A stretch of DNA of 64,000 nt, taken from contig OY763921.1 of the NCBI GenBank assembly GCA_963667625.1, positions 802,241-866,240 on the forward strand. The letters run 5' to 3'. Both the position numbers and the translations under genes were made by a program. The notes below the pieces were generated by a model that saw only the letters and a list, made by a program, of their open reading frames with translations, was not told the DNA's origin and did not search any database. Positions within the stretch are counted from its first letter, which is position 1. Every line of letters begins with the position of its first letter. This DNA comes from Thermodesulfobacteriota bacterium (GTDB lineage: Bacteria; Desulfobacterota_D; UBA1144; Nemesobacterales; Nemesobacteraceae). This document shows positions 2,859 to 55,882 of the stretch, in pieces.

Positions 2859-3323
2859 ATGGAATTCAAACTACTTGAATGGAGTGTAACAGGACTAATT
2901 CAAGGTATACCCCTAGCATTACTTGTTGCAGCAGCTCATAAGGTTGCTCTCCATCGGAGAAAAGAAGATCAAAAAGAAGCTCTTCGTGAAATTATCTCTG
3001 AGAGCGTGAGATTGATTATGACTGTGGGAGACAATGATCCATTCGGTTCAGAAAAACTCTGGAGTCGTGCTCGAAAAAGAGTTTATGATGAAATGTATAA
3101 GAAGGTTCATTTTTTGCTGGATCATAAAATGACTGAGCTTGATTACGAGGATGAAGTTAGAATCAGAGAGGCATTTGCTTCCTTTAAAGATAATCTGGCT
3201 TTGTTTGAAATTGATTCATTTCCATCTCTTGAGATTTACTACCATGGACTCATTAAGAAGTTGAGAAGAGTTGAATGGTTGGGAATTGAGGAACCTGACA
3301 AACCACTTCCTTTTTATGACTAG
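2859..3323 (+). CDS. Hypothetical protein with an N-terminal transmembrane helix (AT-rich orphan)
   Basis: ORF with AGGAGG 9 nt upstream of ATG 2859. No recognisable domain. AT-rich codon usage unlike the core genes. Confidence 0.45.
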   Translation: MEFKLLEWSVTGLIQGIPLALLVAAAHKVALHRRKEDQKEALREIISESVRLIMTVGDNDPFGSEKLWSRARKRVYDEMYKKVHFLLDHKMTELDYEDEVRIREAFASFKDNLALFEIDSFPSLEIYYHGLIKKLRRVEWLGIEEPDKPLPFYD

Positions 3324-3823
3324 TAATAAGTAAAGGCTCTGCCAGCAGAAAGCTCTCTTTTTGACATTGCGGTTACTCTCGTTTGAATCGGTCTTAGAGT
3401 ACTGGAAAGTACCACCGTAACGCAAGAATGAAATTGAAAACATGCGGAAGTCCGCGTGTGTTTTAGGGTAGTGCTGGCTTGCGGTTTCGCATATTACATC
3501 CTTGGCATCCAGTATATGCTGCCCAACCGCTGTCGGATATGTGGAAATATGAAAAGACGAACGGTAGTGGGACGGCCCTCGGCGCGGGAAAATACAAAAC
3601 GGTTACCGGGGAAAATGCCAGAGCCGCGGGGCAGAGGTTGAAAACCGCCGGGCCCGGCACAGAGGTTCCCGTGAGTTAGGCTTTACTCGGGAGCGAGTGG
3701 TTGAGAGAGTCCACGCTGGCGGAAGCACGTTTTGGCTTTCTTTAAGAGATAACTGGTAAGAGAGAGAAAGGCTATGGTCGGGGAAGCAAACAAGGGAAAG
3801 CTTGTAACAATTTGCTACAAATG

Positions 3824-4525
3824 CTATCCCGATATCAACCATTCCCTTACGGCTTTTTGCTCTTCTGTCATCCCTGACTCCGGCACTATAGTCATTCCTA
3901 TAACGTCAAACCCCTCCTTCTTTACCTTCTCCTGATTCAGGTAAAGCAACGCCTCTGCCAAGAGATGGAACATGTCCTGATCGGGTAGCGGAATTCCCGG
4001 CTTGCTCTCAATCAATGTTCCCTTCCAGTGTACGTGGAAGTATCTATAGTCTGAATACGAAGAGTTGTACCTTTTTAGACAATCTACCAAGTCATCCTCG
4101 GAAATTTTGCCCATGTGACCCAAGTCATCCATTTTTCGAATTATATAATCACTACTTACGCCTTCCTTGCCCTCTCTCCCCTTCTGCACCTCATTGTAAA
4201 GATAATGCAGTTCGTGCAGTTTGTAAGGAGATGCTTTGATAGGAGTGGAAAAGTGAAGAAGAAAAAGAAGACGTAGAGATTGTTCCACGGACAGCAAAAT
4301 CAATTCGAAAGAAACTTGGGTGAAATACCAAGTATCAATGGTAAAAGAATTGTCGCGGGCAATCCTCCTGCACAAAAGCGATGCACGTTGATGAGCTCGT
4401 GCGGCAGCCATCATTAGCGGCACCGCATTTTCTATTCCTTCAGAAGTCAACTCTTCATTACCTTTTGTTTCTCTAGGTGTTGTCGTTTTCTTGTATCTCT
4501 CCAGTATTCGAGTTAGGTAATACAT
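3824..4525 (-). CDS. Hypothetical protein, 233 aa (AT-rich orphan, island cargo)
   Basis: Long ORF with no recognisable motif. Lies in the AT-rich island beside tRNA-Ser. Confidence 0.45.
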   Translation of the reverse strand: MYYLTRILERYKKTTTPRETKGNEELTSEGIENAVPLMMAAARAHQRASLLCRRIARDNSFTIDTWYFTQVSFELILLSVEQSLRLLFLLHFSTPIKASPYKLHELHYLYNEVQKGREGKEGVSSDYIIRKMDDLGHMGKISEDDLVDCLKRYNSSYSDYRYFHVHWKGTLIESKPGIPLPDQDMFHLLAEALLYLNQEKVKKEGFDVIGMTIVPESGMTEEQKAVREWLISG

Positions 4526-4840
4526 TGTACATGACTCCTAGAAACGAACGAACAGGGACCCTGTCAGCGTTCTGGCCGCGTGGGGGGTAAGAGCGGAGAG
4601 ACTCTGGCGGGGCGTGGAGCTTGTCCAGGCGGCTGTCAGTTGAAACCCTTGAGGCCCTGGGAAGGATTGTAGAAGCGGAACTTTCGGCCAAGCTGTTTCC
4701 CGTAAGTATCAGATGGCAGGAACTAAGGGCGTCAGACCTTCAAACGAGGGCATGTTCCGTGGATTCCCTAGTAAAGGTCGATGTGGAAAAAGGAAAAGCA
4801 ATGGAGATAGCGGGTCTTTCGGTATAAAGTTAAAATGTCT

Positions 4841-5578
4841 TTAGTCATTCTCTTTTCCGTTGCCTGGAAAGGGGGTCCCTAGGTTGCTCCCGCTTCCCGG
4901 GGCTTTTTCTTTACAGTGGCAAAACCTAAGGAATCGTCGGCAAAATCCGAAAAAGCTGTATAGAGGAACTTCTTCTTCTAACATTTCTAAAATAGATTTA
5001 ATTGATCTTGTAAGGGATTTGTGATTCTGGATTAGTTTTAGAGCAGATTCCCCAAGGTTAACATAGAGGCTAGAATGCATTCCCGCTCCTTTTAAATCCA
5101 AAAACGAACTATATTGCTTCCTGTATTCTTCATGCTTATTTACAAAAATCTGTAAAGACATATAAATACTCACTATTTCACTTCGCAGGTCTGAGTTCTT
5201 AATCTGACCGATGAGATTTGCATTTGAACGATAAACGATCGCATAATCTTTAGGCATCTGTAACGGGCCCGTAAAAAAAAGGGGAGGATCATACTGATTT
5301 GGACTACTCTTTTTAAAGTCCTTCCACTTCTCTTTTTCATACTGCGAGATAAGTTGCTTATAGACTGTATTAAGTTCTGCGCAAATCCCCTCTAAGACAC
5401 CTACAATTCTCTGGCCTCGACGTCTATTATCCGAAGCCATCTGAAATACATACGTCACAAAAGCACCCACAAAAGCACCCACAAGAGCAGCTGTAATAGT
5501 GCCCACAATAACGGCCGTAGTAGCGTCCTTAGTTATTAACTCATTGAACCATGTTATTAAGCCATCAATCAAACCCAT
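4841..5578 (-). CDS. Hypothetical membrane-anchored protein, 245 aa (N-terminal TM helix AVIVGTITAALVGAFVGAFVTYVF)
   Basis: Long AT-rich ORF with a predicted single N-terminal TM segment and a soluble C-terminal domain without recognisable motifs. Confidence 0.45.
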   Translation of the reverse strand: MGLIDGLITWFNELITKDATTAVIVGTITAALVGAFVGAFVTYVFQMASDNRRRGQRIVGVLEGICAELNTVYKQLISQYEKEKWKDFKKSSPNQYDPPLFFTGPLQMPKDYAIVYRSNANLIGQIKNSDLRSEIVSIYMSLQIFVNKHEEYRKQYSSFLDLKGAGMHSSLYVNLGESALKLIQNHKSLTRSIKSILEMLEEEVPLYSFFGFCRRFLRFCHCKEKAPGSGSNLGTPFPGNGKEND

Positions 5579-5695
5579 AAACTTTTCTCCTTATTATTTC
5601 TTATATCAAGCTGGTTCTATTGTGGGATACAAAAGGGTATTTCCTTCCTTGCTCCCCCGGAAAACCTTTTGTTTTCAGGCAGTTATAAATTTATA

Positions 5696-5787
5696 TGGCG
5701 GAGAGAGTGGGATTCGAACCCACGAGGGAGCGTAAACCCCCTACACGCTTTCCAGGCGTGCACCTTCGGCCACTCGGTCATCTCTCC
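5696..5787 (-). tRNA. tRNA-Ser (anticodon GGA), type II with long variable arm, CCA encoded
   Basis: The minus-strand sequence GGAGAGATGACCGAGTGG...CACGCCTGGAAAGCGTG...GTGGGTTCGAATCCCACTCTCTCCGCCA folds as acceptor GGAGAGA/TCTCTCC. The anticodon loop is CTGGAAA. Confidence 0.85.
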
Positions 5788-5913
5788 GTGTGTTTTTGTT
5801 CTGATGACACTACAAGCTGTCATTTTTTTGGGAGTTTTATAAACAATTTCCCGCAGTTTGTGAAAAACCCTCTCTAGTTTAACAAGAGAATCGGTGTTTG
5901 TTAAACTATCAAA

Positions 5914-6450
5914 ATGCCAAGAAAATGGAAGCTTCAAAAGAGCACTCCACTCAACGACTACAGAATTTTTTTGACGAAGAAGAAAAGCACCATCTCGCCC
6001 AAAGACGGCGCCGTCCACGATTTCTACGTAATGGACGCTCCTGACTGGGTTAACATTATCCCTGTTACGCCCTCCGGTGAAATTGTTCTTATAAAGCAGT
6101 TTCGCCACGGCACCGCAGAGGTCACGCTTGAGATTCCGGGTGGAATGATCGACCCGGGAGAAAGCCCTGCTGAGTGCGCGCGCAGAGAGCTCCTTGAGGA
6201 AACGGGGTTTACCTCCACTTGGTGGGAGCAGATAGGGTGCGTACGGCCGAACCCGGCCTTCATGTCGAACTCCTGCTATACCTTCCTGGCATCTGGGTGC
6301 GAGCGGACATCTGAACCGTCTTTTGACACTACAGAAGACATAGAAACCCTGCTTGTCGCTCCGCGGGAAATAAAACGATACATAAGGGAAGGCACCATAG
6401 ATCACTGCATAGTGATAGCGGCGTTCGGGTTTTACTTTCTCGGGGAGTGA
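5914..6450 (+). CDS. NUDIX hydrolase (ADP-ribose pyrophosphatase-like)
   Basis: The Nudix box GGMIDPGESPAECARRELLEETG is seen directly. Confidence 0.8.
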   Translation: MPRKWKLQKSTPLNDYRIFLTKKKSTISPKDGAVHDFYVMDAPDWVNIIPVTPSGEIVLIKQFRHGTAEVTLEIPGGMIDPGESPAECARRELLEETGFTSTWWEQIGCVRPNPAFMSNSCYTFLASGCERTSEPSFDTTEDIETLLVAPREIKRYIREGTIDHCIVIAAFGFYFLGE

Positions 6451-6500
6451 CTCTGTTGATTTCTCCGGGTTTAGCGAGAATAATAGTCCCCTATCTTAGA

Positions 6501-6584
6501 GGGCGGGTGGCGGAATAGGTAGACGCGACGGCCTCAAAAGCCGTTGGGCTTCGGCCCGTGAGGGTTCGATTCCCTCTCCGCCCA
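6501..6584 (+). tRNA. tRNA-Leu (anticodon CAA), type II
   Basis: GGGCGGGTGGCGGAATAGGTAGACGCGACGGCCTCAAAAGCCGT + variable stem-loop TGGGCTTCGGCCCGT + GAGGGTTCGATTCCCTCTCCGCCCA. The anticodon loop is CTCAAAA. Confidence 0.8.
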
Positions 6585-8573: not shown

Positions 8574-8706
8574 ACAAAATTTTTCCTTCTCCAGAAAAAA
8601 TTCTGGGTTAGAGGGAAACTATATAGTGGTTCTCAGAATTTTTCACAGTATAATTACGTGCATCCCAAATCCGCGCAAAGTGGATTCTTAAGTAGGTATA
8701 AAATCA

Positions 8707-9261
8707 ATGGAAGATAGAAAAAGAAAGAGAATCTATATTTTCTGCATAGTGCTGTTTCTGCTCGGAGGGGGGCTTTTCTTTTATAACGTGGTGAAAAGCT
8801 TCACCGGCCTTGGCTCAACGCTTAGCGAATACACTTTTCCGGGAAGCCACTCAATCCGGCTTGAGAAAAAGGGGCTTTATTCGATCTACCACCAGTATGA
8901 AAGCGCTTTTGACGAAGCAAAGACAAGCGGGGACTCCGTCGGGGAGGGCTCGATAGTCGTTTACCTGAGAAAAGCTTCCGACGCGGAAAACGTGGAACTC
9001 AAGGTGCCCGATTCTCAGAAAAGATACAGTTACATGGGAAAGAGGGGAGTGAAGATATTTGAGTTTGAAAACCCCGGGCCGACAGCTTACTTGATCGAAT
9101 CTTTCTCAAGTCCCACTTCGCAACTCTCCCAGTACACCTTGGTTCTTGAGCGCGGGTTCGAGATAACAAGGCTTAAAGGAATACTTATCTCCCAGGCGTT
9201 TTTGCTTGTCCCGACCCTTTTCGCGATAATACTTTTCATGCGCACCTACATAAGGAGCTGA
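8707..9261 (+). CDS. Hypothetical membrane protein (TM helices at the N- and C-termini)
   Basis: ORF with the hydrophobic segments IYIFCIVLFLLGGGLFFY and LISQAFLLVPTLFAIILF. Confidence 0.5.
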   Translation: MEDRKRKRIYIFCIVLFLLGGGLFFYNVVKSFTGLGSTLSEYTFPGSHSIRLEKKGLYSIYHQYESAFDEAKTSGDSVGEGSIVVYLRKASDAENVELKVPDSQKRYSYMGKRGVKIFEFENPGPTAYLIESFSSPTSQLSQYTLVLERGFEITRLKGILISQAFLLVPTLFAIILFMRTYIRS

Positions 9262-14351: not shown

Positions 14352-15908
14352 CTATCTTACCGTGGCGAAATGTCTTTCCTCCGTCGATGAGATGACGGAG
14401 TTTCTAGAAGCGGGGATTTTACGCGATATTTCAGAGGCGGTAAAGCCCGCGGTGCCCGTTTCCTCCAAAAGAAGGTCGGCCGCGTGGCCGTGGAGAAAAA
14501 CGCCGAGCAGGCAGGACTGAAGAGGGTCGTATCCCTGGGCCGCGAGTCCCCCGATTATTCCCGTAAGCACGTCTCCGGTCCCGGCCGTGGCCATGGCGGA
14601 ATTTCCGGTCGGATTTATGAACACTTCCCCGCCGGGGGTGGAGACTACCGTTCTCGCTCCCTTAAGGACGACGTAGCAGCCGTATTTTTCGGAAAACCGG
14701 GTCGAGATCCCGACGCGGTCATCCTGCACCTGTTTTGTTCTTACGCCGCAGAGCCTTGCCATTTCCCCCGGGTGCGGAGTTATTACCGCGGGGACTTTTG
14801 TTTTCTTGAGCACTCCGGGGTCCTTTGAAATTATGTTAAGGGCGTCGGCATCAAGCGTGACCGGCACTTCGCACAGGGTTATCACTTTTTCAAGGAACTT
14901 CCCCGTGCTTTTGGAGGTCGATATCCCGGGGCCGATGGCAAGCGCCGTTTTCTTCCCCTCAAGTTCCCTGAGCACTTCTTCGTGCGCGTCGGGATGTAAG
15001 GTTCCGTCCTTTGAATCCTTGAGAGAAACGGACATTACCTCCGTTGTCTTTTCCTCAACAGCCGAGGATATGCTTCTTGGAACCCCCAGGGTTACGAGTC
15101 CGCTTCCGGCGCGAAGTGCTGCTTCGGCAGAGAGGACCGCGGCCCCGCTTTTTCCCGGAGAACCGGCGACCACGAGAAGATGTCCGTAGGTTCCCTTGTG
15201 TGAATCGGCGGCCCTTTTTTTAATGAGTCCCCGGCATTTTTGAAACGTGAGAAGTTCAAAGGGGAGATCTTCCCAGAGTGGCCTGGGGATTGTTATGTCC
15301 GTTACGCAGAGCTTTCCCGCGTAATCCACTCCGGGGTGAATGCACATTCCAAGCTTCGCCGGGGCAAAGGTGACGGTAACATCGGCCTGTACTGCCGCCC
15401 CGAGAGGCCGCCCCGTATCGGCGTCAAGTCCCGAGGGTATGTCCACGGAAACGCGTCGGGCGCTCTGGCGGTTTATGAATTTTATAAGTTTCTCGTAAAA
15501 CCCCTCCACATCCCTGTCGAGTCCGGTGCCGAAGATGGCGTCGACTATAACTTCCGTGTCTTTTATCCTGGGAAGCTTTCCGCCAAGCTCCCTTACGTCG
15601 GCTCCTATCTCGAGAAGCGAGTCGAGATTCGTTTTCGCGTCTCCCCTGTAGCGTTCCTTTTTTTCTGCGGTGTGGACGCTTATCTCTTTTCCCGAGGAAA
15701 TAAGGTGTCGCGCGATTACGAAACCGTCCCCGGCGTTGTTTCCGGCGCCGCAGATAACCGCCATTTTCTTTGCGGAGGGACACTCGGCGAGGATGACCGA
15801 TGCCACGGCTCTTCCGGCGTTCTCCATCAGCACGACGCCTGGAACTCCGAATTCCTCAATCGTCCTTCGGTCTATTTCCCTTGATATCTGCTTGGTTGAG
15901 AGTTTCAT
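14352..15908 (-). CDS. nnr: Bifunctional NAD(P)H-hydrate repair enzyme Nnr (YjeF-N epimerase + YjeF-C ADP-dependent dehydratase)
   Basis: The YjeF N-terminal domain (GAGNNAGDG) and the carbohydrate-kinase-like C-terminal domain (GTGDVLTG near the end) are both present. Confidence 0.85.
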   Translation of the reverse strand: MKLSTKQISREIDRRTIEEFGVPGVVLMENAGRAVASVILAECPSAKKMAVICGAGNNAGDGFVIARHLISSGKEISVHTAEKKERYRGDAKTNLDSLLEIGADVRELGGKLPRIKDTEVIVDAIFGTGLDRDVEGFYEKLIKFINRQSARRVSVDIPSGLDADTGRPLGAAVQADVTVTFAPAKLGMCIHPGVDYAGKLCVTDITIPRPLWEDLPFELLTFQKCRGLIKKRAADSHKGTYGHLLVVAGSPGKSGAAVLSAEAALRAGSGLVTLGVPRSISSAVEEKTTEVMSVSLKDSKDGTLHPDAHEEVLRELEGKKTALAIGPGISTSKSTGKFLEKVITLCEVPVTLDADALNIISKDPGVLKKTKVPAVITPHPGEMARLCGVRTKQVQDDRVGISTRFSEKYGCYVVLKGARTVVSTPGGEVFINPTGNSAMATAGTGDVLTGIIGGLAAQGYDPLQSCLLGVFLHGHAADLLLEETGTAGFTASEISRKIPASRNSVISSTEERHFATVR

Positions 15909-22808: not shown

Positions 22809-22885
<77 letters not shown>

Positions 22886-22888
22886 CTA

Positions 22889-22961
22889 GGGGGTGTAGCT
22901 CAGTTGGGAGAGCGCCTGCTTTGCAAGCAGGAGGTCGACGGTTCGAGCCCGTTCACCTCCA
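22889..22961 (+). tRNA. tRNA-Ala (anticodon TGC) with the G3:U70 identity pair; CCA not encoded
   Basis: GGGGGTGTAGCTCAGTTGGGAGAGCGCCTGCTTTGCAAGCAGGAGGTCGACGGTTCGAGCCCGTTCACCTCCA. Confidence 0.9.
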
Positions 22962-35890: not shown

Positions 35891-38422
35891 TTACTCTGTG
35901 TCGACCGACACCTTCTCGAGATTCGTTTTTATTACCCGAAGGAAGTTCTTCCCCATTATTTTCTCGACCACACCGGTCGGATATCCCTTGCCGAGAAGAT
36001 ACTCGGGGAGTGCGGGAAGTTTGGATATGTGTCTCATTTCTTCCGGAAAATCTTTTATCGGCGCTCCGTCCATGTCGGTTCCCACTCCCACGTGATCCTC
36101 GCCGCAGACGCTTATAATGTGGTCTATGTGAGCGTATATGTCTTCGAGGGTAGCGCAGCCTTCTCCTTTCCTTAAGAATTTCCCGTAGAAAACGACCCCG
36201 ATTACCCCGCCCCTCTCGGAAATGGCGCGAAGCTGCTCGTCACGCAGGTTCCTTGGATGGTCCACAAGCGCTCTTGAATTCGAGTGGGTCGCAATGGGTA
36301 TCAGTTCGGTGAGTTCCACGCTCTCCCAGAAGCAGCGTTCGTTAAGGTGGGAGAGATCAAGCGTGGTGCCCAGGGTGTTCATCTGCCCCAGAAGTTCTTT
36401 TCCCTGATCAGATAGCCCTTCCTTGCTTTCAGGCCCGGAAGCGTAGATGTTCCTGTTGTTCCAGGAAAGACCGAGAGCCCGGACGCCCCTTCTCTGGTAT
36501 TCAACAAGATGCTCCGGGTTCAAAATGGGATCAGCTCCTTCCATGAGAGTGAAAAACCCGATCTTTTCGCCTTCCCGCAGTCTGTCTATGTCCCGTCTGC
36601 TTTTTATCTGAAAGACGCTTTCTGAGTGTTCACGGTATATCCCGTCGTAGAGGTCAAGCTGGGCCATGGCTTCCGTTACGGAACGCGCGGGTTTGTGCTT
36701 CGGGTGTATGAAAACGGTGTTGAAAACTACCCTGGCCCCGCCTTGCCTGAGCCCGGGCAGGGTTATCATGCAGGGGACCTCGGGATTCTCAAATTCCCTT
36801 TTGTAGTGGCGCATGTGAAAGGCTATGTCCTGGTGAGCGTCGATGGTGAAAAAAGTAGCCGAAGCGGGAGTTCCCCATCCTCCCCCTCCCGGAGTCTCGA
36901 TTCTCACCGCTTCTCCGGCCTTCACCTCAATAGAGCATTTCGCGGGCAGTTTTTTCTCTTCCGCTCCTGACACAAGCGTGTTCTTACCGCTTTTCCCGTC
37001 TTCTCCGCCCCGGGCTCCCCAGGGCCGCTTCTCCCTTCTCTCGGTTATGAGGGAGACATGGGAATCTTCAAGGAACCTGTACTGCCTTATGATTCCGTCC
37101 CCGCCCGGGAACCTGCCCGCGCCCCCTGATCCCTTTCTTACGGAGTATGATTCCACCATTACGGGAAGCTCCCTCTCGATTGCCTCAACGGGGGTGTTGA
37201 GCGTGTTTGTCATGTGCGTGTGCACCGCGTTTGCTCCACCAGCGCCTGAGCGTCCTCCCATTCCGCCGGCTATGGTTTCATAGTAGGCGTAGGAGGAATC
37301 AGAAGGTGCGTTTCGCGGCGAGCCGAACGCGAGGTTGCTCATCGTTCCCGCGCTTGCCGCCTGTATCATCTCGGGGACTGCCTCGGCGAGCGCTCCGAAC
37401 ACCACGTCCACTATCCTCTGGGACGTCTCGACGTTTCCGCCGACGACCGCGCTTGGGTACTTGGCGTTTAGAATCGAGTCTTCGTCGACTCTGATTTCAA
37501 TCGGCCTCAGGGTTCCCGAGTTAAGAGGCGTGTCCTCACCCGAGAGACACTGAAAACAGTATAAAACCGCGGAGGTTGTTACGCTCAGGGGAGCGTTAAG
37601 ACATCCTTTTACCTTCTTCGAACTTCCTCTGAAGTCGACCACTGCTGTGTCCCCGCTTATTTTTATCTTTACCTGTATCGGTATATTCCTCGTTCCCGCC
37701 CCGTCATCTTCAAGGTAGTCAGTAAAGACGTAATCGCCGTCCGGTATTTTCTCTATGGCGTTTCTAACTAGCCTCTCCCCGTAGTCAAGAAGCCCGGAAG
37801 CGGCTTGGTTTATTTTCGAAAGAGAGTATTTTTCGAGAAGCTCCCGCATCCTTTTCTCCCCGGTATCAAGCGAGGCTATCTGCGCCCGAAGATCCCCTTC
37901 TCTTTCCTCATGATCCCTAGTCGAGAGGATTATTTCCTGAAGCAGGGTTTCACGCACCACGCCCTCTTCCCGTATTCTTGTCGGGGGTATTATGATTCCC
38001 TCTTCGTGAATTGTCGTTGAAAGCGGCATGGACCCCGGGGTGTCGCCCCCTATGTCCGCGTGGTGGGCTCGCGAAGCGAGCAGAAACTCAGGCTTCCCGT
38101 TGACGAACACTGGAGCGATGCACGTTACGTCGGGAAGATGCGTTCCGCCACGGAACGGGTCGTTAAGGATGAAAACGTCTCCAGGGGAGAGATTCTCCGT
38201 CGCTACCGATCTTGCGGCAAACGACATTGACCCCAGGTGTATGGGGATATGGGCGGCCTGGGCGATCATTTCTCCCTCTGAGTTGAATATGGCGCAGGAA
38301 AGATCCCGTCTTTCCTTTATGTTCGGAGAGAATCCGGCTCTTACGAGCACAGAACCCATTTCCTCGGCGATTGTTCCGAGAAGGTTGTTGAAGATCTCTA
38401 GCTCGAAAAGTTCTAGTTCCAT
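35891..38422 (-). CDS. Fusion protein: N-terminal hydantoinase-B / 5-oxoprolinase subunit B-like (HyuB, about residues 1-520) + C-terminal M19 membrane/renal-type dipeptidase (about 525-843)
   Basis: HyuB N-terminus MELELFELEIFNNLLGTIAEEMGSVLVRAGFSPNIKERRDLSCAIF. M19 motifs IDAHQD (cf. DGHND), DLSHLNE, ATHSNSRAL..HPRNL.D, GGVIGVVFYG and HIDHII..CGEDHVGVGTDMDG. Confidence 0.75.
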   Translation of the reverse strand: MELELFELEIFNNLLGTIAEEMGSVLVRAGFSPNIKERRDLSCAIFNSEGEMIAQAAHIPIHLGSMSFAARSVATENLSPGDVFILNDPFRGGTHLPDVTCIAPVFVNGKPEFLLASRAHHADIGGDTPGSMPLSTTIHEEGIIIPPTRIREEGVVRETLLQEIILSTRDHEEREGDLRAQIASLDTGEKRMRELLEKYSLSKINQAASGLLDYGERLVRNAIEKIPDGDYVFTDYLEDDGAGTRNIPIQVKIKISGDTAVVDFRGSSKKVKGCLNAPLSVTTSAVLYCFQCLSGEDTPLNSGTLRPIEIRVDEDSILNAKYPSAVVGGNVETSQRIVDVVFGALAEAVPEMIQAASAGTMSNLAFGSPRNAPSDSSYAYYETIAGGMGGRSGAGGANAVHTHMTNTLNTPVEAIERELPVMVESYSVRKGSGGAGRFPGGDGIIRQYRFLEDSHVSLITERREKRPWGARGGEDGKSGKNTLVSGAEEKKLPAKCSIEVKAGEAVRIETPGGGGWGTPASATFFTIDAHQDIAFHMRHYKREFENPEVPCMITLPGLRQGGARVVFNTVFIHPKHKPARSVTEAMAQLDLYDGIYREHSESVFQIKSRRDIDRLREGEKIGFFTLMEGADPILNPEHLVEYQRRGVRALGLSWNNRNIYASGPESKEGLSDQGKELLGQMNTLGTTLDLSHLNERCFWESVELTELIPIATHSNSRALVDHPRNLRDEQLRAISERGGVIGVVFYGKFLRKGEGCATLEDIYAHIDHIISVCGEDHVGVGTDMDGAPIKDFPEEMRHISKLPALPEYLLGKGYPTGVVEKIMGKNFLRVIKTNLEKVSVDTE

Positions 38423-48632: not shown

Positions 48633-49652
48633 ATGCAAGAAGCGCTTCAGCAGATAAGAAACCAGATAGATTCTGACCTTGACTCGGTCTCTACGGAGGC
48701 CGATCTCGTCAGGGTGAAGGCAAGCTACGTCGGAAAGAAAGGATCTCTCACGCAGCTTCTTAAATCCATGAAAGATCTTCCCGCTTCCGAGCGCCGCCAG
48801 GCGGGCATTCTCATAAACGGGACCAAAAAGGAAATCGAGGATCTGATCGAGGGAAAATCCGACGAGATAAAGCGCAAAGTGATGGATGAAAAGCTCCTTG
48901 AGGAGGCAACCGACTTCACTCTTCCGGGGCGCGGAATGCCGGTCGGAGCCAAGCACCCCATAACCCAGGTGATGGAGCGCATCGTCTATGACTTCGAGAG
49001 AATGGGATTCGAAGTCGCCGAGGGTCCCGAGGTCGAGCTCGATTACTACAATTTCGAGGCGCTTAACATACCGAAAAACCACCCTGCAAGGGACATGCAG
49101 GACACTTTCTACATAACCGACAACATGGTCTTAAGAACCCACACCTCGCCGGTGCAGATACGGATCATGCAGACCCAGCAGCCTCCGGTGAAGATAATAG
49201 CTCCCGGAAAGGTCTACCGGTCCGACAGCGACGTTTCCCACACCCCTATGTTCCACCAGATAGAGGGTCTTCTCGTTGACAGAGGCATAACTTTCGGAAA
49301 TCTGAAGTCCGTCATCATTCAGTTCGTGAAACTCACTTTCGGTGAGAATACGAACGTAAGGTTCCGCCCGAGTTTCTTTCCCTTCACCGAGCCCAGCGCC
49401 GAGGTGGACATAGAGTGCCAGATATGTTCTGGAAACGGATGCAGGGTATGCAAGGGGACCGGCTGGCTTGAGATAATGGGATGCGGAATGGTCGACCCAG
49501 CGGTTTTCTCGAGCGTTAACTACAACACTGACATCTATTCGGGTTTCGCTTTCGGCATGGGGGTTGAGAGAATCGCCATGCTTAAGTACGGGATAAACGA
49601 CATAAGGCTTTTCTTTGAGAACGACGTAAGGTTTTTGAGGCAGTTCGTGTAG
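48633..49652 (+). CDS. pheS: Phenylalanine--tRNA ligase alpha subunit
   Basis: Class II motifs are present (FRPSFFPFTEPSAEVD, GFAFGMGVERIAMLKYGI). Confidence 0.9.
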   Translation: MQEALQQIRNQIDSDLDSVSTEADLVRVKASYVGKKGSLTQLLKSMKDLPASERRQAGILINGTKKEIEDLIEGKSDEIKRKVMDEKLLEEATDFTLPGRGMPVGAKHPITQVMERIVYDFERMGFEVAEGPEVELDYYNFEALNIPKNHPARDMQDTFYITDNMVLRTHTSPVQIRIMQTQQPPVKIIAPGKVYRSDSDVSHTPMFHQIEGLLVDRGITFGNLKSVIIQFVKLTFGENTNVRFRPSFFPFTEPSAEVDIECQICSGNGCRVCKGTGWLEIMGCGMVDPAVFSSVNYNTDIYSGFAFGMGVERIAMLKYGINDIRLFFENDVRFLRQFV

Positions 49653-49809
49653 TTTTCTCGCAGGAATTGCCGTTGGACGCCAAGTCTCGTTTTTATGACA
49701 TGAAATAGTGGTGTTTGTGAGTAGTGTCGGCAGTAACCATTGTCCTTGAGTTTCTAGCTCAACCTTGTATTCTAAGTCATTATAACACTTTTGTATCGCT
49801 TAATAGAGC

Positions 49810-50460
49810 ATGTCCATGGCCTCTAAGATACCCTACATGACGTCGACAGGATTGATTCCGAAGATATTGGAGAAAATTCAAAATGCGAGGCGGCCTGAAC
49901 GGTTCACCCAAGACTTCCTAGGAACAAAGCTCGGGCACAGCGGGGGCAGTGCACGAGCTATTATACCGTTACTAAAACGTATGGGATTTCTCGGGTCAGA
50001 TGGTGTTCCAACATTTCTATACGATCAATTCCGTAATGTCGAGACTCAAGGTTTCGCTGTTGCTGAAGGCATGAAGAATGCATTCAGTGAGCTTTTTGAC
50101 CGCAATGAATATATCTACGAAGTGTCTCGTGAAAAGTTAACAGGACAAGTAGTTGAGATCACTGGAGCAACTAAGAACGATAGAAGTACCACAGCTGTCG
50201 TCGGAACCTTTTTAGCATTGAAAGAGCTAGCAGATTTTGAGTACGAGGAGCCGGAGAATCCACTTCCTGAACCAAAATCAGAAGTGCCCCCTTTACCACA
50301 GCTTTCGAATAATGGTGAAAATGTGTCTCCGATTGGCAATAGAGATAACATTGAACTGAGAGTTGGGTATACAATCAATCTTAATCTTCCAGAAACCAAT
50401 GACCCCGAGGTTTTCACAGCTATTTTCAAAGCTCTTAGGGAAAACCTATTGAAAGACTGA
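49810..50460 (+). CDS. Hypothetical protein, 216 aa (DUF5343-like by memory); first gene of a coupled two-gene cassette in an AT-rich insert
   Basis: AT-rich ORF. Its stop TGA overlaps the ATG of the next gene (TGATG). The family call is tentative. Confidence 0.45.
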   Translation: MSMASKIPYMTSTGLIPKILEKIQNARRPERFTQDFLGTKLGHSGGSARAIIPLLKRMGFLGSDGVPTFLYDQFRNVETQGFAVAEGMKNAFSELFDRNEYIYEVSREKLTGQVVEITGATKNDRSTTAVVGTFLALKELADFEYEEPENPLPEPKSEVPPLPQLSNNGENVSPIGNRDNIELRVGYTINLNLPETNDPEVFTAIFKALRENLLKD

Positions 50461-51041
50461 TGCGTGCAGAAGAAGCGATTAAATTATTTGGGTTAAACAA
50501 TTTGACTATCGAGTCAAACATTCGACAGATAGAAAGGAAGTACGATATCAACCTTGGTCACAAGAAGGATAAGGAACAAAGAACAGATCAAACATATTAT
50601 CCTCAATTTGCCGAGCGTCTTCGAGCTGAAGCGTCTCGTATGTCGGCAAATTATACAATTTTCTACTGTCTTGAGAACAGTATCAGAGAATTAATTGTTC
50701 AACGGCTTGAAGAAGAACACGGCACTAACTGGTGGGACACGGCCGTACCAAAAGTCGTTCGTAGCAATGCTGAGAAAAATCGAGAGAAAGAACTATCATC
50801 AGGTGTTACTCCCCGTTCAACAGAGCTAATAGATTTCACAAATTTTGGGGAGCTGGGGGAAATCATTAAGGCTAATTGGGACATTTTTGGTGATATGTTT
50901 CGCGATGTTCGAGCGGTCGAAAAGGTTCTGGCAACGCTTAACACATTGCGTGCGCCCATAGCACACTGCAAAACACTCGCAGAGGATGAGGAATTACGAC
51001 TGCATCTTGGCCTGCGCGACTGGTTTCGCCAGATGGAATAA
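50460..51041 (+). CDS. Swt1-like HEPN-domain protein (putative RNase), 193 aa
   Basis: Rx4H motif in LNTLRAPIAHCK, embedded in a predicted all-alpha protein. Translationally coupled to the upstream gene. Confidence 0.5.
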   Translation: MRAEEAIKLFGLNNLTIESNIRQIERKYDINLGHKKDKEQRTDQTYYPQFAERLRAEASRMSANYTIFYCLENSIRELIVQRLEEEHGTNWWDTAVPKVVRSNAEKNREKELSSGVTPRSTELIDFTNFGELGEIIKANWDIFGDMFRDVRAVEKVLATLNTLRAPIAHCKTLAEDEELRLHLGLRDWFRQME

Positions 51042-51290
51042 TATACTGAATATCCGGTTCTCGATATTCCTGCGCACAAAGTTCCTAGCAAAATTTATTT
51101 CTGAGGTTGTATCAGCATTTCAGCGTCACACAGATGAGATAGATACTGTTTCTAAAGCAGAGACCGAAAAAGAAAGCCGAACCCCCGTATAAACTTAGCA
51201 GCATGATTAAGGACTTGCGGTTTGACGAATACATACACATGAAAGAGCAGTCAAAAATGAAAAAGATTGAAGAAAACAGAAAGGAGAATA

Positions 51291-51857
51291 ATGATGGGAA
51301 TCAAACCTGATCACTGGATAAGGAAAATGGCGCTTGAGCACAAGATGATAGATCCTTTTGTGGAAGGGCAGGTAAGCAAGGGCGTTATATCGTATGGCCT
51401 CTCCTCTTACGGCTACGACATAAGGGTAAGCAGTGAGTTCAAGGTGTTTACCAACCTCCACAGCGCCGTAGTTGACCCTAAGAATTTCGATCCCAAGTCC
51501 TTTGTGGAGATAGAGGATGATTACTGCATAATTCCGCCGAACTCCTTTGCGCTTGCAAAGACCGTTGAGTATTTCAGGATACCCAGAAGCACCGTTACCG
51601 TGTGCGTCGGTAAATCCACTTACGCAAGGTGCGGGATAATCGTAAATGTCACCCCTTTTGAACCCGAGTGGGAGGGATATGTGACGCTTGAGATCTCAAA
51701 TACGACTCCCATTCCCGCGAAGATATATTCAAACGAGGGGATCGCCCAGGTGCTATTTTTCGAAGGAGACGAGGGGTGCGAAATCTCTTACGCGGACAAG
51801 AAAGGCAAATATCAGAAACAGACCGGCATCACGCATCCGAAAATTTCGCAGGCATAA
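51291..51857 (+). CDS. dcd: dCTP deaminase
   Basis: Dcd/dUTPase-fold motifs ([32 protein letters not shown]). The internal Met after the RBS aggagaataATG is the chosen start. Confidence 0.8.
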
Positions 51858-52040
51858 GGTTCTCGAAAGCAATCCTGTCCACCAGAGACCGATTGGTCCT
51901 ACAATCTGCCGAAAATTCGGGATTTATATACGCCACTGCCCAAAAGTGTGATAAGATGTAAGTACGGGCTTAATGTATTCCCTGCAGAGCAAGTTTGAGA
52001 TAATACTGCAGCGTCTGGACAATATGGAGAAGCGCCTCAA

Positions 52041-52391
52041 ATGAGCGACGCAGGATTTAAAATTCAGGTCGATCAGTTCAAAGGAGTTCTGATAATAAGC
52101 ATATCCGGCGAGATCAAAGGCCTGAACGGACGGGAATTTCACCGTGCGATATTCCAGGAAATCCAAGGGCAGGAGGTCCCTATAGTTCTGGACCTCGAAG
52201 GGCTGACCTACATCAACAGCACGGGACTGCGCTCGATCCTGCTTGTCGCCAAAAGGCAGCAGGAAAACAAAGCGGAATTCGCGGTGTGCTCCCTGTCCGG
52301 ACCTATCAGAGAAGTATTCGAGATCACGTGCTTTGACCGGATCATATCGGTGCTTGATTCCCGCTCCGAAGCCATAGCAGCGGTAACTTAG
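52041..52391 (+). CDS. STAS-domain anti-sigma-factor antagonist (SpoIIAA-like)
   Basis: The STAS pattern (ILDLEGLTYINSTGLRSILLV) is seen. Confidence 0.7.
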   Translation: MSDAGFKIQVDQFKGVLIISISGEIKGLNGREFHRAIFQEIQGQEVPIVLDLEGLTYINSTGLRSILLVAKRQQENKAEFAVCSLSGPIREVFEITCFDRIISVLDSRSEAIAAVT

Positions 52392-52550
52392 AAGTTATTC
52401 CTAATTGACATCTTCAAGGTCTTCAAGCTTTTTTATAAGCTCTTCTTCAAGAAGCCTTATGCCGACTTTGATGCTTTCTGGATCAGATGCGAAATCTGAT
52501 TCTTCCTTCCTAGCATGGGCAGGCATGTATATAAATCCCAAAAATTCTGA

Positions 52551-55127
<2,577 letters not shown>

Positions 55128-55166
55128 CAACTCACTTTCTCCACTTCAGCCCCATCTACGATAGTT

Positions 55167-55802
55167 TTATGCTTCCCATAACTTTTCTAACTCGGGAGAT
55201 TCACCGATTTCGTTATTCGGGTCGTAGAACTTAGAAGACTTTAATATCCAAATAGACTTATTTATAGATGCCTCGATTTTCTTTTCTTTCTCTTGCTGTT
55301 CATAATACAGGCTCGCATACGAGATGTTCTTGCTGTCCAGTGCTAAGAGCTTTATTGTTTCTAATACATCAATACAAATATTAGGGATACCTTCGAGAGA
55401 TATTGACCAAGAAAGATTAGGCTGAAAATGTTCGAAATTATTTCTAAAGTGACGATGTAACCAGAGTATGGAGTTCTTTTGATTAAGAGTCAATTCAATC
55501 GGAAGAGAATGATAAAAACGCTTTACCCCAATACAGAGTTTTAAGGCAGTTATTAGATCGACAACCCCACCTTTTTTTCTTTGGACAATGCCTGGATTTG
55601 TCCCAGCCGCAACAGTTAATGCGAAAGTATAAAGCGAATGCTGCAAGCAGATAATTACCCATTTCCAATGGAATGCTCCCCAACAGATTCCATCATCTTG
55701 AAGTAGTCTTGTATGTTTCTCAGCTCTACAAATATATTCTTCAGCTCTGAGAAGAGAATCTACGGCATTCTCTTTGTCGTTGATTCTTAAGTAATTTCCC
55801 AT
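55167..55802 (-). CDS. AT-rich orphan protein, 211 aa, with an RNxxxH (HEPN/Abi-like) motif
   Basis: The motif WLHRHFRNNFEHF occurs in the middle of a predicted alpha-helical protein. Very AT-rich relative to neighbours. Confidence 0.4.
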   Translation of the reverse strand: MGNYLRINDKENAVDSLLRAEEYICRAEKHTRLLQDDGICWGAFHWKWVIICLQHSLYTFALTVAAGTNPGIVQRKKGGVVDLITALKLCIGVKRFYHSLPIELTLNQKNSILWLHRHFRNNFEHFQPNLSWSISLEGIPNICIDVLETIKLLALDSKNISYASLYYEQQEKEKKIEASINKSIWILKSSKFYDPNNEIGESPELEKLWEA

Positions 55803-55882
55803 TTCGGTTTGCCTTTCCTATATATGGTTGTCGGGGTTGATGTGTAAATCCCTGAAAAACAAGATTATGAACCAGTGGATTT

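Follow-up and report, generated by a model that had tools for sequence, protein, structure and literature searches.

The window analyzed here, a 64,000-nucleotide (nt) stretch of contig OY763921.1 from a Thermodesulfobacteriota bacterium (GenBank assembly GCA_963667625.1) of the Dadabacteria lineage, carries an AT-rich insert between the core genes pheS and dcd, and this insert encodes a two-gene cassette whose products, referred to as A and B, contain a DUF5343 domain and an Swt1-type HEPN domain, respectively. The left flank, pheS (48633-49652, plus strand), is recognized by the Pfam profile tRNA-synt_2d (PF01409, E 2e-103), and the right flank, dcd (plus strand), which starts at an ATG at 51292 or 51295 and ends at 51857, by PF22769 (E 1.5e-37). 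Two open reading frames (ORFs) on the same strand occupy the interval between them, A at 49810/49816-50460 and B at 50460-51041, and the stop codon of A overlaps the start codon of B by 1 nt within the sequence TGATG (50457-50462). An earlier annotation of this DNA (the original prediction) had placed the end of pheS at 49652, the start of dcd at about 51291 and a TGATG overlap between the two ORFs, and these coordinates hold.

The borders of the insert were defined by comparison with relatives recovered in a pheS-anchored scan that retained one genome per species and that places the window in Candidatus Dadabacteria. Homology to three insert-free loci (L001, L002, and L003) ends at 49654-49659 and returns at 51240-51280 in BLASTN alignments, and these breaks delimit a window-specific insert of 1,580 nt (49660-51239, not assigned to a strand), nearly the same interval as the 49660-51260 first proposed. 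The insert replaces a spacer of ~84 nt, unrelated and divergent, in L001, the closest insert-free relative; in the junction alignment its border is ambiguous to the base, and the native spacer is itself divergent. Its AT-rich character is borne out by a GC content of 42.9%, compared to 51.8% in the secD-pheS flank and 49.0% in the dcd-gyrB flank, which places it within the lowest 1.5% of 1580-nt windows (whole-window mean 50.4 +/- 3.6%). The GC content at third codon positions differs in the same direction, at 0.395 for A and 0.397 for B vs. 0.60-0.68 for secD, secF, pheS, the STAS-domain gene, and gyrB. A search at the insert borders for tRNA genes, integrases, and terminal inverted repeats was negative, a target duplication could not be made out convincingly, and the sole repeat at the borders, an imperfect 11-nt sequence at 49698 and 51237, is compatible with chance. 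No Rfam family matched at E <= 1 within 49400-51500.

Neither a terminator nor a strong promoter was detected for the cassette. A candidate promoter on the plus strand (49746-49774), composed of TTGAGT (49746-49751), a 16-nt spacer, and TATTCT (49768-49773), is weak, agreeing with the consensus at 8/12 positions and falling under the scan threshold. The candidate -10 element lies inside the conserved motif CTTGTATTCTA at 49764-49774, which recurs in the form C[GT]TG[TC]ATyCT 48-52 nt upstream of the A start in six cassettes that belong to the closest sub-clade and lie in unrelated genomic contexts. A TTGAG-N7-CTCAA palindrome at 49746-49762 overlaps the putative -35 element and is seen only in the window and in L082. 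A conserved autoregulation operator found no support beyond the nearest relatives, as the upstream motif is kept only in the closest sub-clade and the palindrome only in these two loci. Among cassettes in unrelated contexts, homology at the DNA level extends from ~88 nt 5' of A to ~100 nt past the B stop codon, and that between the window and two other Dadabacteria loci (L086/L087) starts at 49728.

Gene A and the DUF5343 Domain

Gene A (49816-50460, plus strand) encodes a DUF5343 protein identified by its profile match. Its start is most likely the ATG at 49816, giving 214 aa, because this is the commonest length among its homologues; a start at 49810, giving 216 aa, is possible. The original prediction had drawn the ORF from 49810, and its protein length of 216 aa is the less likely one. 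Its suggestion of a DUF5343-type family proved accurate, with a match of 160.8 bits to PF17278 (cut-off 27, E 3e-47) that covers residues 8-147 and model positions 1-139/140. DUF5343 was the only family matched by A in Pfam, where no nucleotidyltransferase family appeared at E <= 1. Homologues are numerous, comprising 990 sequences in a word-indexed search and 1,394 clusters in an exhaustive search of representatives, mostly of 205-245 aa and aligning end to end.

The protein is composed of three parts. An N-terminal domain (aa 1-146, nt 49816-50253), modeled at a predicted local distance difference test (pLDDT) score of ~90 and with a conservation of 0.66, consists of a winged helix-turn-helix (wHTH) followed by a second helical module. 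Its fold matches are wHTH proteins, including the MarR and PadR regulators, and proteins of the BrxA/FokI type, and as modeled the domain has a nucleic-acid-binding type of fold; a Foldseek search of the PDB with A returned no significant match. The domain is followed by a disordered and hypervariable linker of ~35-45 aa (aa ~147-180, conservation 0.17) and by a near-invariant C-terminal strand-helix segment (aa ~181-214, conservation 0.71), YTINLNLPETxDPxVFxAIFKAL, which is still recognizable in a homologue at 32% identity (P0499).

DUF5343 also occurs in other architectures. One protein of 457 aa (P0413) joins it to a Ser/Thr kinase whose half of the protein matches the PADLOC model PD-T4-6 (E 8e-43), and another of 371 aa (P0451) joins it to a coiled-coil/hydrophobic region. 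Judged from these fusions, DUF5343 may serve various defense effectors as an exchangeable input domain. An apparent DUF5343-HEPN fusion (P0503) was rejected as a frameshift artifact, its middle section being out of frame.

Gene B, a HEPN Protein of the Swt1/Abi2 Clade

Gene B (50460-51041, plus strand) encodes a protein of 193 aa that was assigned to the Swt1/Abi2 clade of HEPN domains by profile and motif. It matches the Pfam family HEPN_Swt1 (PF18731) well above the cut-off (51.0 bits vs. 27.5, E 2e-13, residues 68-192) and has no Pfam Abi_2 match; NCBIfam, PHROGs, and a sequence search of PDB chains yielded nothing for either A or B. The sequence LRAPIAHC contains the predicted catalytic residues R164 (50949-50951) and H169 (50964-50966). 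This R-x4-H motif, in the form R[GAN]P[IL]AH, is present in 66/66 distinct full-length homologues down to 45% identity, and R164-x4-H169 as well as a YCLEN..R block are invariant in 27 close homologues, which agrees with the Swt1-like HEPN protein with an Rx4H signature originally proposed. A word-indexed search returned 3,872 homologues in total. The AlphaFold2 model of B is all-helical with a mean pLDDT of 68, and its best fold matches are the HEPN proteins AbiF, MtlR, and AbiA; this fold evidence is modest when taken alone, and the HEPN assignment rests on the profile score and motif conservation. The Abi2/Swt1 clade includes catalytically active bacterial Swt1-like versions, and non-catalytic HEPN domains are typically devoid of the Rx4-6H motif (Anantharaman et al., 2013, PMC3710099).

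Assignment of the Cassette to PDC-M34

Both proteins match models of a single PADLOC system over nearly their whole lengths. A matches the PDC-M34A model PDLC04589 (E 2.3e-50, aa 3-213/216, model 1-207/208), and B the PDC-M34B model PDLC04592 (E 2.7e-42, aa 5-192/193, model 4-190/192). PDC-M34 has the same two-gene layout, A followed by B (A>>B) on a common strand, and is recorded as CAS_00130 = FAM_01148>>FAM_01657 (supplementary file 8). Judged from its sequence, the cassette in the window is a member of PDC-M34 with no structural difference, and the original statement that the pairing could not be assigned to a named system does not stand.

Pairing, Spread, and Selection

The association of A with B was followed across 87 loci, of which 80 came from a metagenome scan (45-83% B identity) and seven were found via close homologues. 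Three of the 87 end at a contig edge upstream of B, and A lies directly upstream of B in 83 of the 84 informative loci. The exception is L155 (4374-6582), in which a DDE_Tnp_1_4 transposase occupies the place of A. The distance from the A stop to the B start, measured in 80 loci, always falls between -17 and +5 nt, the commonest values being -8 (20 loci), -1 (17), -4 (16), and +1 (12). Such tight coupling thus characterizes the family as a whole and is no local accident.

The pair moves horizontally between phyla: A and B proteins sharing 70-95% identity are assigned to Dadabacteria on the one hand and, on the other, to Alphaproteobacteria such as Geminicoccaceae, Labrenzia, Aurantimonas, and Hyphomicrobiaceae. 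Its surroundings vary widely from locus to locus: in L083 the cassette lies in an island with PIN, ParDE, reverse transcriptase, TrwC fragments, Fic, PDDEXK_4, and integrase genes, and in L147 it adjoins a Type ISP restriction enzyme. In L098, an unrelated metagenomic locus, the cassette (5369-6582) directly follows a gyrB/parE-like gene (2985-5183), while the gyrB of the window lies 1.6 kb downstream of its cassette, which is probably a coincidence.

Both genes are under purifying selection. The ratio of nonsynonymous to synonymous substitution rates (dN/dS) relative to L081 and L086 is 0.08-0.11 for A and 0.04-0.07 for B, with 0.05-0.07 for pheS. Loss of A has also been captured: in a Geminicoccaceae metagenome-assembled genome (L084, 376-1025) and a Logan SRA assembly of the same locus (L085, 265-914), the start codon of A has changed from ATG to ATA and codon 111 is a TAA. 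At these loci and in L155, where A is dead or replaced, the ORF of B is intact and none of its invariant residues has been lost.

Presence and Absence of the Insert in Dadabacteria

In four relatives (L001, L002, L003, and L005), the closest of which (L001) shares 95% identity with the window in pheS, dcd directly follows pheS at a distance of ~90-150 nt, and both the cassette and pheT are missing. Because these four share this arrangement, the adjacency of pheS and dcd is the ancestral state in the Dadabacteria lineage, and the cassette is inserted DNA, as originally proposed. The further proposal that it was inserted where pheT would follow pheS has to be abandoned, since pheT is not found at the pheS-dcd locus whether the insert is present or not; apart from gyrB and a hydantoinase fusion described below, the window contains no ORF of the size of pheT.

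The insert is variable within the lineage rather than a conserved core feature of the locus, in keeping with the inserted cassette envisaged at the outset. L001 and L002 are without it, though their flanking genes are 91-93% identical to the window at the nt level, whereas the more distant L081 (flanks 88-91%) has the cassette at the same site. This pattern of presence and absence is a genuine polymorphism. Relative to the window, A and B of L081 show a matching divergence, being 93.6 and 89.5% identical at the nt level, and their synonymous divergence (dS) is 0.25-0.49 vs. 0.59 for pheS. Two histories would account for this pattern, namely an old insertion with subsequent loss in the L001/L002 branch, or transfer via recombination in the flanks. 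In two other Dadabacteria (L086/L087) the cassette lies elsewhere, between a KefB-type exchanger gene and a gene for an AMP-binding enzyme.

A Remnant of a Third Gene

The insert was originally said to hold exactly two genes, which is correct for intact genes and overlooks a remnant of a third. The 5' end of this gene, C, remains downstream of B as 47 codons and a stop codon (51049-51192, plus strand) and was identified because it resembles, in both DNA and protein sequence, what follows B in L081, L083, L086, and L093. A full-length C follows B only in L083 and L093, and the Dadabacteria cassettes have remnants. The C family consists of highly conserved, unnamed proteins of 178 aa with 1,368 homologues, one of which bears the label 'Restriction endonuclease BglI..', and a possible PD-(D/E)xK motif, VDAW..GLEIKAG, can be discerned. 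Elsewhere C stands alone, with DruA, HNH, Mrr-SNF2, PIN-Phd, and IS elements as its neighbors (L168-L173). L083 has two copies of C (8655-9083 and 15245-15781), the second of which follows another two-gene pair that encodes a 189-aa protein and an AF_1680-family protein, and L093 has one (2397-2822).

A three-gene A-B-C system was considered and rejected, as the succession of B and C is limited to L083, L093, and the remnants, and C is otherwise a solitary island gene. Because its other occurrences are solitary and in defense-island or mobile-element contexts, C is regarded as an independent island resident outside the A-B system. The stump in the window is a fossil, and the insert was cut from a larger island.

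Proposed Function and Alternative Explanations

The reading that we favor, and to which we attach moderate confidence, is that the insert represents a two-gene conflict module of the PDC-M34 family, self-contained and acquired horizontally, in which an RNase effector, B, would be silenced by A until a cue arrives. As the effector of the module, B would belong to the metal-independent HEPN endoribonucleases (Swt1/Abi2 clade), and A would be its obligatory partner, with the overlapping genes presumably setting a fixed A:B proportion. A may bind B through its tethered C-terminal segment and keep the RNase silent in this way, while the DUF5343 domain of A would serve as a nucleic-acid-binding sensor or regulator. 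A cue read by this domain during invasion by a phage or foreign element would release or activate B, which would then cut cellular and/or invader RNA and bring about growth arrest of an abortive-infection or toxin-antitoxin (TA)-like kind. The original prediction of a compact conflict-type cassette gains substance from the horizontal mobility of the pair and its matches to PADLOC candidate models.

A number of points weigh against this reading. The flanks of the cassette are mostly housekeeping genes (gyrB-like, uvrA, thiC twice, and tsaD), and defense neighbors occur only sometimes, namely the island in L083, the Type ISP restriction-modification (RM) enzyme in L147, and a Bil system near L081, so that enrichment in defense islands is not demonstrated in the loci examined. 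No close relatives were found on annotated phages or plasmids, where the search returned only distant (~30%) Swt1-type HEPN proteins of different architecture. The contact between A and B via the C-terminus of A is inferred from conservation of that segment. The literature holds no experiment on any member of the family, and beyond the HEPN survey of 2013 and the PADLOC preprint no paper on PDC-M34, DUF5343, or HEPN_Swt1 pairs was found; Payne et al. (2024, bioRxiv 10.1101/2024.01.29.577857), the authors of the latter, state explicitly that none of their 145 PDC systems has been tested.

Alternatively, the cassette could be a classical type II TA addiction module, selfish and with no dedicated anti-phage role, in which A would be the labile antitoxin, made up of a DNA-binding autorepressor, a disordered linker, and a neutralizing peptide, and B the RNase toxin; we regard this as unlikely. 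A DNA-binding domain, a disordered region, and a conserved C-terminal peptide are the textbook layout of an antitoxin, and the architecture of A matches it, yet the N-terminal domain of A is large and under strong purifying selection (dN/dS ~0.1), and an antitoxin domain would not usually be found, as DUF5343 is, in fusion with a kinase or a membrane-type module. The antitoxin-like gene comes first and is closely coupled, stop to start, in all loci, and the cassette often stands alone between housekeeping genes and spreads horizontally, which are points in favor of such a module. Intact copies of B persist without A in two independent cases (L084/L085 and L155), which argues against addiction, although a lost promoter or lost translational coupling could also silence B at these loci. 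The palindrome over the putative -35 element in the window and L082 would suit an autorepressor, while no operator is conserved beyond the closest relatives. In type IX retrons, the wHTH (WH) protein alone mitigates HEPN toxicity, which lends this explanation some support (bioRxiv 10.64898/2026.07.14.738597).

Two further explanations appear far less probable. In the one, A would act as a transcription factor alongside B, a HEPN-fold protein that would bind RNA or a ligand and not be toxic, and the two would adjust host expression outside any conflict. The presence of MtlR, a non-catalytic HEPN-fold regulator, among the best fold matches of B, the resemblance of the wHTH of A to the MarR and PadR regulators, and the housekeeping flanks can be cited for it, but the R-x4-H motif is invariant in all 66 homologues, whereas non-catalytic HEPN domains typically lose it (PMC3710099), and the patchy presence among close relatives, cross-phylum transfer, foreign composition, and PADLOC candidate matches of both proteins make such a regulatory role very improbable. 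Hardly more credible is that the cassette is a decaying, non-functional fossil of a larger defense island. The third gene is indeed reduced to 47 codons, a terminator and strong promoter were not detected, and A is pseudogenized in one alphaproteobacterial lineage; both ORFs of the window are nevertheless intact with all invariant residues kept, and their dN/dS of 0.04-0.11 relative to L081 and L086 is as low as that of pheS (0.05-0.07).

Beyond the conflict module favored above, a more far-reaching proposal can be put forward tentatively, and we consider it doubtful as a whole. DUF5343 would be a previously unrecognized, exchangeable, invader-sensing, BrxA/FokI-like bipartite HTH domain that reads DNA or another nucleic-acid cue and drives different immune effectors, namely a HEPN protein in trans via the tethered peptide and, within fusion proteins, a PD-T4-6-type kinase or a membrane-type module. 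PDC-M34 would then be the founding and mechanistically distinct member of a new sensor-effector family, and not a TA system.

The locus provides a clean natural example of a small, predicted RNase-based conflict module that is gained or lost between core genes in uncultured Dadabacteria of reduced genome size and that has moved between phyla nearly unchanged. The comparative data give PDC-M34 a testable anatomy, consisting of obligatory coupling, an invariant tethered C-terminus, a DUF5343 domain that is modular and also occurs with a kinase effector, and natural cases in which B survives without A. If confirmed experimentally, this would turn PDC-M34 into a defined system and clarify the role of DUF5343. 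Because pairs of a HEPN RNase and a regulatory partner are familiar, the conceptual surprise is limited.

A Second Variable Slot, a Possible Third, and Other Features of the Window

The interval between dcd and gyrB (51858-52640) is a second variable slot in Dadabacteria. It holds a STAS-domain gene in the window (52041-52391) and in L001, a gene for an AbiEi-like antitoxin in L002 (7791-8597), genes for a Mutator-family transposase, Schlafen/AlbA_2, and HATPase_c_4 proteins in L003 (7687-11330), and a Bil-type ubiquitin-like system (BilA_UBL, JAB, and BilD_N) in L081 (9399-12800). An AT-rich stretch between gyrB and nuoH (55128-55882, GC 0.35-0.41) contains an orphan ORF of 211 aa on the minus strand (55167-55802) with no Pfam or PADLOC match; L081 has an HNH_2 gene at the gyrB-nuoH position, which may be a third accessory slot.

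Two other features lie further away. An 843-aa ORF on the minus strand (35891-38422) fuses a Hydantoinase_B/oxoprolinase domain (E 3e-202) to a Peptidase_M19 membrane dipeptidase domain (E 2e-81), an unusual combination in which each activity is part of gamma-glutamyl-cycle-type metabolism. Adjacent genes for tRNA-Ile(GAT) and tRNA-Ala(TGC) at 22809-22961, with no long ORFs around them, bear the usual signature of the spacer of a 16S-23S rRNA operon.

Comparison With Known Systems

According to Payne et al. (2024, bioRxiv 10.1101/2024.01.29.577857), the systems collected as PDC in PADLOC-DB v2 are guilt-by-embedding candidates, drawn from genes that lie inside BREX, DISARM, and type I RM loci. 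Unlike the discovery loci of PDC-M34, the cassette of the window is not embedded in a BREX, DISARM, or RM locus and lies between pheS and dcd. The pairing of A and B is nonetheless already catalogued under this name, and it is not a new kind of module.

Several characterized systems share individual features with the cassette. Type II TA systems are likewise bicistronic with the partner gene upstream and coupled, as reflected in the narrow range of intergenic gaps among the 80 loci measured. The HEPN-MNT (type VII TA) systems also consist of two genes, with an Rx4-6H HEPN RNase toxin neutralized by a protein partner; there, the toxin is AMPylated by this partner, a minimal nucleotidyltransferase, whereas A has no nucleotidyltransferase domain, and the HEPN family differs. 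In the AbiF/AbiD (Abi_2) systems the partner is a non-coding RNA (ncRNA), RF03085, whereas the window has no Rfam match at the locus, B has no Abi_2 match and is shorter, and its partner is a protein. BrxA of BREX and the FokI-type bipartite HTH DNA-recognition domains are related to the cassette by the fold matches of the N-terminal domain of A. PD-T4-6, a single-gene Ser/Thr-kinase defense, shares with A only the DUF5343 relative fused to a kinase in P0413; the cassette of the window itself has no kinase, and the link runs via domain shuffling in another protein.

The closest parallel in regulatory logic is the type IX retron (Retron-Kva2), in which a HEPN toxin is likewise paired with a separate wHTH suppressor protein. 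There, the wHTH protein is wrapped around the HEPN dimer, so that the active site is less accessible and toxicity is held down until phage infection, while contacts between the HTH and nucleic acid link the complex to phage sensing, and the outcome is abortive infection by cleavage of rRNA and tRNA (bioRxiv 10.64898/2026.07.14.738597). The retron further comprises a reverse transcriptase and an ncRNA/multicopy single-stranded DNA, whereas the insert in the window contains only A, B, and the gene remnant. The WH protein has two HEPN-binding alpha/beta domains followed by a C-terminal HTH, whereas A has an N-terminal HTH-type domain and a short tethered C-terminal segment, and the HEPN protein of the retron is without the canonical Rx4-6H motif that B retains as Rx4H. 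The type IX retron is thus a functional analogy and not a case of shared membership, and by this analogy it offers an experimental precedent for the regulatory logic proposed for A and B.

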